Shown piece after piece: positions 554-651 of a stretch of 64,000 nt of DNA (its first letter is position 1; each line of letters opens with the position of its first letter). The notes under the pieces were generated by a model. The model worked only from the letters and a program-made list of their open reading frames with translations, searched no databases and was not told the origin of the DNA. The translations under genes and the position numbers were made by a program. The DNA comes from Escherichia coli (GTDB taxonomy: Bacteria; Pseudomonadota; Gammaproteobacteria; Enterobacterales; Enterobacteriaceae): assembly GCF_001677475.2 (NCBI RefSeq), contig NZ_CP015229.1. The stretch is one strand, 5' to 3'.

Positions 554-651
554 GCCTGATGCGCTACGCTTATCAGGCCTACGAAGAGCGTGCAATATAT
601 TGATTTTGCAAGATTGTGTAGGCCGGATAAGGCGTTTACGCCGCATCCGGC
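554..651. repeat. REP/BIME palindromic unit pair
   Basis: gcctgatgcgctacgcttatcaggcctac ... tgtaggccggataaggcgtttacgccgcatccggca: typical E. coli REP palindromes; a nearly identical ~100-bp copy lies at 58909..59006. Confidence 0.85.

Follow-up and report, generated by a model that had tools for sequence, protein, structure and literature searches.

Two repeated segments near the ends of the stretch of Escherichia coli DNA that we analysed (64,000 nucleotides of contig NZ_CP015229.1, hereafter the window), one 3′ of ybbP (copy A) and the other between entD and fepA (copy B), are almost certainly single-copy BIME-1 elements (RIB/RIP), alike since both lie near the consensus of their family and not because either was recently copied from the other. 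The kind of element is already known and presents no anomaly. The first-pass annotation, which called the copies ordinary REP elements, recognised it correctly, and its description can be sharpened to BIME-1, i.e. a Z1 REP, an L linker with an IHF site and a Y REP.

Anatomy and class of the two copies

Both segments are present where they had been placed, in the gene context that had been given for them. In a global alignment, copy A (554-651) and copy B (58909-59005) are identical at 89 of 98 columns (90.8%), and differ by eight substitutions and one gap column. The Z1 REP arms (554-582 and 58909-58937) match at 29/29 positions (100%) and the Y REP arms (618-651 and 58972-59005) at 33/34 (97%), with the single change in the loop, whilst the linkers (583-617 and 58938-58971) match at 27/35 (77%), with seven substitutions and one indel. 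The longest exact run shared by the copies is 31 bp (553-583). The pairwise alignment thus bears out a real repeat with arms at 97-100% and a linker at 77%: the original wording, of a few substitutions in the spacer, was right in kind, but 'near-identical' overstated the likeness. The segments had been located properly with their ends one base off from each other; using the 35-nt Y string, the copies run from 554 to 652 and from 58909 to 59006.

The copies are direct repeats, both on the + strand and 58,355 bp apart. Their likeness reaches past the limits first drawn, to 534-677 and 58889-59031 (84.7% identity), outside which identity is ~41-46%, the level of unrelated sequence. When each REP arm was used as a pattern, there were three matches in the window against 0 expected (100 shuffles); a chance origin of the repeat is excluded.

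Three REP reference strings, as given in Durrant et al. 2024 (PMC11208160), served to delimit the parts of each copy. Copy A starts 16 nt 3′ of the ybbP stop codon (TGA, 535-537), which lies inside a left flank motif, ATGATGACAGGCGTTAGATT (534-553, + strand), that aligns with 58889-58908 and with the family consensus CTGATGACAAACGCAAAATT. There follows a Z1-type REP in the iREP orientation with a CTAC end (554-583, + strand), which agrees with the published Z1 string GCCTGATGCGCTACGCTTATCAGGCCTACG at 30/30 positions. The long linker L (584-617) contains the IHF pattern WATCAANNNNTTR with 0 mismatches, the perfect consensus AATCAATATATTG lying at 593-605 on the minus strand. The Y-type REP (618-652, minus strand; GTAG on the linker side when read on the + strand) agrees with the published Y string TGCCGGATGCGGCGTAAACGCCTTATCCGGCCTAC at 35/35 positions. 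The right flank motif, TGAACAGTGTGCATTTTGGCAATAA (653-677, + strand), aligns with 59007-59031 and with the consensus TGAACAAAGCGCACTTTGTCAGCAATC; in short ybbP-BIME-mnmH haplotypes it ends after GTGCA(C).

Copy B has the same parts in the same order: a left flank motif (58889-58908, + strand) that on the minus strand forms part of the entD 5′ leader; a Z1-type REP (58909-58938, + strand; 30/30 against the published Z1 string); a linker L (58939-58971) with an IHF-like site that differs from the consensus by one mismatch (ATTCAATATATTG, 58947-58959, minus strand); a Y-type REP (58972-59006, minus strand; 34/35 against the published Y string, with one A to G change in the loop); and a right flank motif (59007-59031, + strand) 13 nt from the fepA stop codon (59045-59047). 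With the entD start set by alignment to K-12 b0583, giving an ATG at 58871-58869, copy B, read on the minus strand, is separated from the preceding fepA stop by 38 nt and from the following entD ATG by 37 nt.

As RNA, the four REPs of the two copies fold into hairpins of -12.9 to -21.3 kcal/mol (z -3.2 to -5.4), each stem having internal mismatches. The Z1 and Y REPs of copy A give -13.2 kcal/mol (z = -3.9) and -20.9 kcal/mol (z = -4.3), and those of copy B, on the transcribed minus strand, -12.9 kcal/mol and -21.3 kcal/mol (z = -5.4), respectively. The whole copies fold at z = -4.1 to -5.3 on both strands, and in 3/4 strands the folding program prefers one long Z1:Y hairpin over two separate REP hairpins.

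BIME-1 is defined by z1 and y REPs in single copy around a long conserved L linker, often with an IHF site (Ton-Hoang et al. 2012, PMC3333891). Under the names BIME-1, RIB (reiterative IHF BIME) or RIP (repetitive IHF-binding palindromic), the class goes back to Gilson et al. 1991, Boccard & Prentki 1993, Oppenheim et al. 1993 and Bachellier et al. 1999, as these are quoted in PMC3333891. In both copies, as read from the sequence, Z1 and then Y face head-to-head (...CAGGCCTAC-linker-GTAGGCCGG...). Each site carries one extragenic BIME unit, and the linkers of 35 nt (copy A) and 34 nt (copy B) are of the long L type. The copies thereby share with the BIME-1/RIB/RIP elements of E. coli the inverse Z1/Y arrangement, the ~35 bp IHF linker, the single unit at a 3′-end or intergenic site, the conserved outer flank motifs and the presence of dozens of copies per genome. 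There is no difference in kind; the perfect IHF site of copy A, AATCAATATATTG, occurs in only 3/127 sampled copies, the usual form being ATTCAATATATTG. Copy A is not among the REP/RIP elements numbered in K-12 because its locus is absent from that strain, and the current K-12 RefSeq record holds no REP/RIP repeat_region annotation.

Two related classes were compared. BIME-2 elements (Z2 plus Y, short linkers, tandem arrays, DNA gyrase sites) have in common with copies A and B the Y REP, the GTAG/CTAC heads and an extragenic location, but in A and B the Z REP is of type Z1 instead of Z2, the linker is an L linker of 34-35 bp where BIME-2 has an S linker of ~16 bp, and the units are not repeated in tandem. 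REPINs and REPtrons, i.e. REP doublets mobilised by a RAYT (TnpA-REP, yafM in K-12; PMC3333891, PMC2817692, PMC8049555), are likewise doublets of inverted REPs with GTAG as the head. Both Z1 arms also contain the CC|T cleavage motifs of iREP ends (TGCC|TGAT and GGCC|TAC). In contrast to mobilised doublets, however, the loci of copies A and B look static over the long term, orthologs being present in E. albertii as well as in a divergent E. coli lineage. Neither BIME has a RAYT gene next to it, the neighbours being ybbP, a dinQ-like gene, entD and fepA. In K-12, yafM lies elsewhere on the chromosome.

Further REPs occur in the window. A third, decayed BIME-1 at 14200-14303 (minus strand) has a Z1 REP at 14274-14303 (minus strand) with 1-2 mismatches, a linker that is still recognisable and a Y REP that is largely eroded; immediately next to this element lies the sRNA STnc480 (Rfam RF02068, 14308-14374, plus strand, 87.6 bits). 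At 22484-22571 (+ strand) lies a BIME-2-like pair, in which a Z2-like REP (22484-22520) and a Y REP (22537-22571, 3 mismatches) are separated by a short linker of 16 nt, and so the window holds the other main BIME class too. The GTAGGCC/GGCCTAC 7-mers at 4767, 10141, 34574 and 38667 were also considered and are chance matches, not REPs.

The pair within its family

Copies of this family are abundant. The 151-bp region around copy A was matched by megablast in 5,425 of 5,426 E. coli genomes, at a median of at least 40 places per genome. A pattern scan (CTTATCAGGCCTAC-N28-40-GTAGGCCGGATAAGGCG) of one genome per species found at least 120 loci in E. albertii, E. whittamii, divergent E. coli lineages, Pseudocitrobacter, Citrobacter, Kosakonia and Pluralibacter, with 10-26 exact-pattern copies per Escherichia genome among the matches listed. 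BIME-1 units of the E. coli type were also seen on tiny, low-coverage contigs of Desulfosporosinus, Collinsella (MAG), Micromonospora and Alkalicoccobacillus assemblies (L079, L096-L101), most likely as enterobacterial contamination.

Across 127 aligned copies, the modal linker length is 35 nt (79/127) and the core GCAATATATTGAATTTGC is highly conserved. The best-conserved linker columns coincide with the IHF site, and the best IHF match has at most one mismatch in 91/127 family linkers compared to 6/127 shuffled linkers. Columns of the flank motifs are ~45-66% conserved. Because the 127-copy consensus includes these outer flank motifs, the extended likeness over 534-677 is a property of the family and calls for no larger duplication.

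When the pair was placed against the copies of related genomes, the A-B identity of 90.8% compared with an all-pairs family median of 83.7%. In four Escherichia genomes, 2-10% of within-genome pairs were at least as similar (≥90.8% identical), with maxima of 93-97%, which puts the A-B pair in the upper tail of the within-genome range yet still inside it. The suggestion that the copies are unusually long and alike for their family thus does not hold. Judged from these sequences, the pair is not really special within the family, and its likeness reflects shared closeness to the consensus.

It is extremely unlikely that the two loci were linked by recent copying, through segmental duplication or gene conversion, and that the pair is an active recombination substrate. 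The identity is indeed above the family median, but the likeness stops exactly at the boundaries of the family unit, giving way to the unrelated flanks. Similarly, two non-consensus linker states are shared (G following CTAC, and GCAAGA in place of the consensus GCACGA), yet the linker differs at 8/35 columns. Among the matches listed, copy B is the fourth-best partner of copy A out of 126 over the core and the second-best over the extended unit; against this, the orthologs at each copy's own locus are at least as near, and 29 copies from other genomes are nearer to B than A is. The closest relative of A among the matches listed (tied, 91.8%) is the ybbP-BIME-mnmH locus of E. albertii (L028), whose flanks are 92.6-93% identical to the window. 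Among the matches listed, B pairs best with the locus between entD and fepA in a divergent E. coli lineage (L038; 96.9%), and the K-12 ortholog of copy B is nearly identical. Since orthologs of A and of B occupy the corresponding loci of other lineages or species, both copies are old and vertically inherited. On these orthology data, recent copying is already largely refuted.

The same sequences bear on the warning, given with the original observation, that such copies are potential substrates for recombination or assembly errors. With the repeats in direct orientation, an exchange would either remove 58 kb or duplicate them in tandem. The colinearity with E. coli HS places lpxH, cysS and folD between the copies. 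These genes are essential, and a deletion would remove them; only a duplication could therefore survive. The minimum for RecA-dependent exchange is reportedly ~23-27 bp (Shen & Huang 1986), just below the 31-bp exact run, so recombination between A and B is possible in principle. A divergence of ~9% would invite rejection by mismatch repair. REP-mediated duplications are reported from Salmonella (Shyamala et al. 1990). In 5,426 complete E. coli genomes, neither a synthetic duplication junction nor a synthetic deletion junction was matched (0/5,426 each at a coverage of ≥80%), the best matches being the parental loci, which argues further against recent exchange. The caveat about recombination is thus valid in principle, but equally so for dozens of other copies; this pair is not special and no rearrangement of it was found.

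For the concern over assembly, no sign was found: many genomes carry both loci with their own unique flanks, and E. coli HS has the same order as the window. There is next to no chance that one copy, or the order of the intervening 58 kb, is a repeat-caused assembly artefact. The reading can appeal to the capacity of such repeats, in principle, to confuse short k-mer assemblers, but the element is ~100-145 bp, shorter than typical reads. From ybbP to entF the window follows HS, with 1-36634 forming one block at 97.9% identity and colinear blocks thereafter, and breaks occur only at known variable islands. Moreover, entD-BIME-fepA is intact in 5,345 of the 5,426 complete E. coli genomes, and the ybbP-BIME-dinQ-like arrangement is contiguous, as in the window, in 1,287. 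The A/B pair is then neither a signal of misassembly nor a demonstrated rearrangement hotspot, and as a pair it matters little.

Transcript-level readings and proposed function

A reading of copies A and B as intrinsic (Rho-independent) terminators was rejected because neither has a T-run, and a terminator scan returned no terminator-like site inside either copy. The nearest such site on the ybbP side is a hairpin with a T-run at 683-704 on the + strand, outside copy A. REP-induced ribosome stalling reportedly operates when the REP is ≤15 nt from the stop codon (Liang, Rudd & Deutscher 2015). For ybbP this mechanism was rejected and is not claimable, since the spacing of 16 nt falls just outside that range. 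On the other side of the window, a site scan between fepA and entD found neither a promoter-like nor a terminator-like site, in keeping with transcription that continues through copy B into entD. A literature search found nothing specific on a REP in the fepA-entD spacer.

Rfam offered two matches that could suggest a small RNA. The first, to ES036 (RF02751, CssrF), aligns to the linker and the Z1 head of the copies, scoring 42.2 bits in copy B (58930-58971, minus strand) against a gathering score of 37.6, and 35.0 bits in copy A (575-617, minus strand), below that score. It is very unlikely that copy B, and perhaps copy A, is on this account a dedicated small-RNA gene and not a structural repeat. 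Within the linker, conservation is highest in the modelled hairpin, TGCAA...TTGCA, but the same model passes its gathering score at 8/20 unrelated BIME-1 loci from five other genomes, there is no promoter-like site nearby, and the matched strand in copy B is simply the mRNA strand of fepA-entD. Because it passes at those unrelated loci, ES036 behaves as an effectively generic L-linker model. A literature search found no paper on ES036. The second match, to naRNA4 (RF02564), fails, with 40.4 and 38.4 bits against a gathering score of 59.5. This REP325-derived RNA has two REP hairpins and an l linker; its first hairpin aligns to the Y REP and its middle 43-44 positions are unmatched. The score lies below threshold because only one of the two hairpins is present.

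A more speculative version extends the RNA idea to the family, or moves it to the chromosome: the L-linker hairpin might be released from many BIME-1 transcripts as a multi-copy sRNA family with a shared trans-acting or IHF/HU-related role, or pairs of IHF-bound BIME-1 units might anchor chromosome domains. What speaks for these ideas is the Rfam match together with the conservation of the IHF site, and the chance that either holds is slender.

The preferred reading, of two ordinary BIME-1 units, has the following functional content. The anatomy of the copies, their family membership, the stability of their hairpins, the presence of the IHF consensus and its family-wide conservation, the long-term stability of the loci and the use of copy A by IS621 are established. 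The roles of BIMEs in IHF binding, exonuclease blocking, attenuation and RAYT processing are summarised in PMC3333891, and we infer from the family that IHF occupancy, mRNA stabilisation or attenuation, and RAYT processing may also apply at A and B. In RNA, the two G+C-rich hairpins would block 3′-to-5′ exonucleases and attenuate read-through. Copy B, inside a fepA-entD co-transcript, may thereby stabilise the fepA segment and lower the expression of entD downstream, whilst copy A, in the ybbP 3′ UTR and ahead of the hairpin and T-run at 683-709, may shield the 3′ end of ybbP. At the DNA level, the linker is predicted to be bound and bent by IHF. IHF binding to the BIME-1 family is credited to Boccard & Prentki 1993, and the text of an IHF ChIP-seq paper mentions neither the copy A nor the copy B locus. 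The REPs may in addition be substrates of the REP-associated tyrosine transposase (TnpA-REP/RAYT), and the CTAC end of each Z1 REP would be a natural bridge-RNA target of IS621.

The two loci across genomes

Against complete E. coli genomes, the window shows ~97-98.5% identity. It had been suspected that IS150-family and IS421 elements near entD lie inside copy B, as the REP-targeting IS1397 would; they were found in the hokE region instead. In the window, that region carries a tandem duplication (57258-58191; period ~504 bp, 97% identity) that comprises two complete hokE/sokE type I toxin-antitoxin units, with two Rfam sok matches and two identical 50-aa HokE ORFs. At the same spot, K-12 and HS have one hokE with IS186/IS421, and T-HYM1 has two hokE with IS150 between them. 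Elsewhere in the window, a tRNA-Arg(TCT) at 35801-35877, an argU-type prophage attachment site, occurs without an adjoining DLP12-like prophage; the 6.5 kb beside it (36,600-43,100) encode a DUF4434 protein (ybcH-like), nfrA and nfrB, and HS has a vgrG/PAAR island there.

The copy A locus takes several forms. In 25DN, the BIME stands alone between ybbP and mnmH. In EC-10 (L129, 6108-6349), ~100 extra bp at the locus correspond to an added Y REP and a Z2-like REP, and with four REPs the BIME is atypical there; this is an instance of between-strain variation in REP copy number at a single locus. In K-12, the expected counterpart of copy A was looked for and there is none: homology breaks at window position 543-544, and an RhsD element replaces 544-1249. 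The 'integrase core' gene of isolate 362 was rejected as an insertion into copy A, since it lies downstream of dinQ.

In the window, copy A is adjoined by a dinQ/agrB-like type I toxin-antitoxin module (~667-1240). The dinQ-like toxin ORF (755-838, minus strand) encodes a 27-aa peptide that passes the NCBIfam toxin_DinQ model (40.9 bits, cutoff 30), and an AgrB-like RNA lies at 1100-1190 on the plus strand (Rfam AgrB, 50.3 bits). A 27-bp hairpin with a T-run is repeated at both ends of the module (683-709 and 1163-1189, 96% identity). One of these copies, at 1157-1190, forms the 3′ end of the AgrB-like RNA and has the score of a bidirectional terminator; the other, at 683-709, could be a terminator for ybbP or what is left of a second Agr-like RNA. 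K-12 lacks the module, as do the short ybbP-BIME-mnmH haplotypes (EC-10, 25DN and E. albertii).

One insertion does fall within copy A. In strain 2012C-4221 (L005, 580-1860), IS621 sits in the Z1 REP at the CT core of ATCAGGCCTAC, at window position 579-580, with CT on both sides. The published natural target of IS621 is the 11-bp ATCAGGCCTAC with a CT core (Durrant et al. 2024, PMC11208160). This target lies at 572-582 in the Z1 REP of copy A and at 58927-58937 in that of copy B, and the 11-mer is also present in both other REP clusters of the window.

For the biology of these loci, an ES036 match in the fepA-entD spacer should be taken to mean 'BIME-1 linker' and not an sRNA specific to this locus. 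Strains vary in the ybbP-mnmH spacer, a small polymorphic hotspot occupied by the BIME alone, by the BIME with extra REPs, by the BIME with a dinQ/agrB-like module, or by RhsD, and copy A within it is a documented natural landing site of the bridge-RNA recombinase element IS621.
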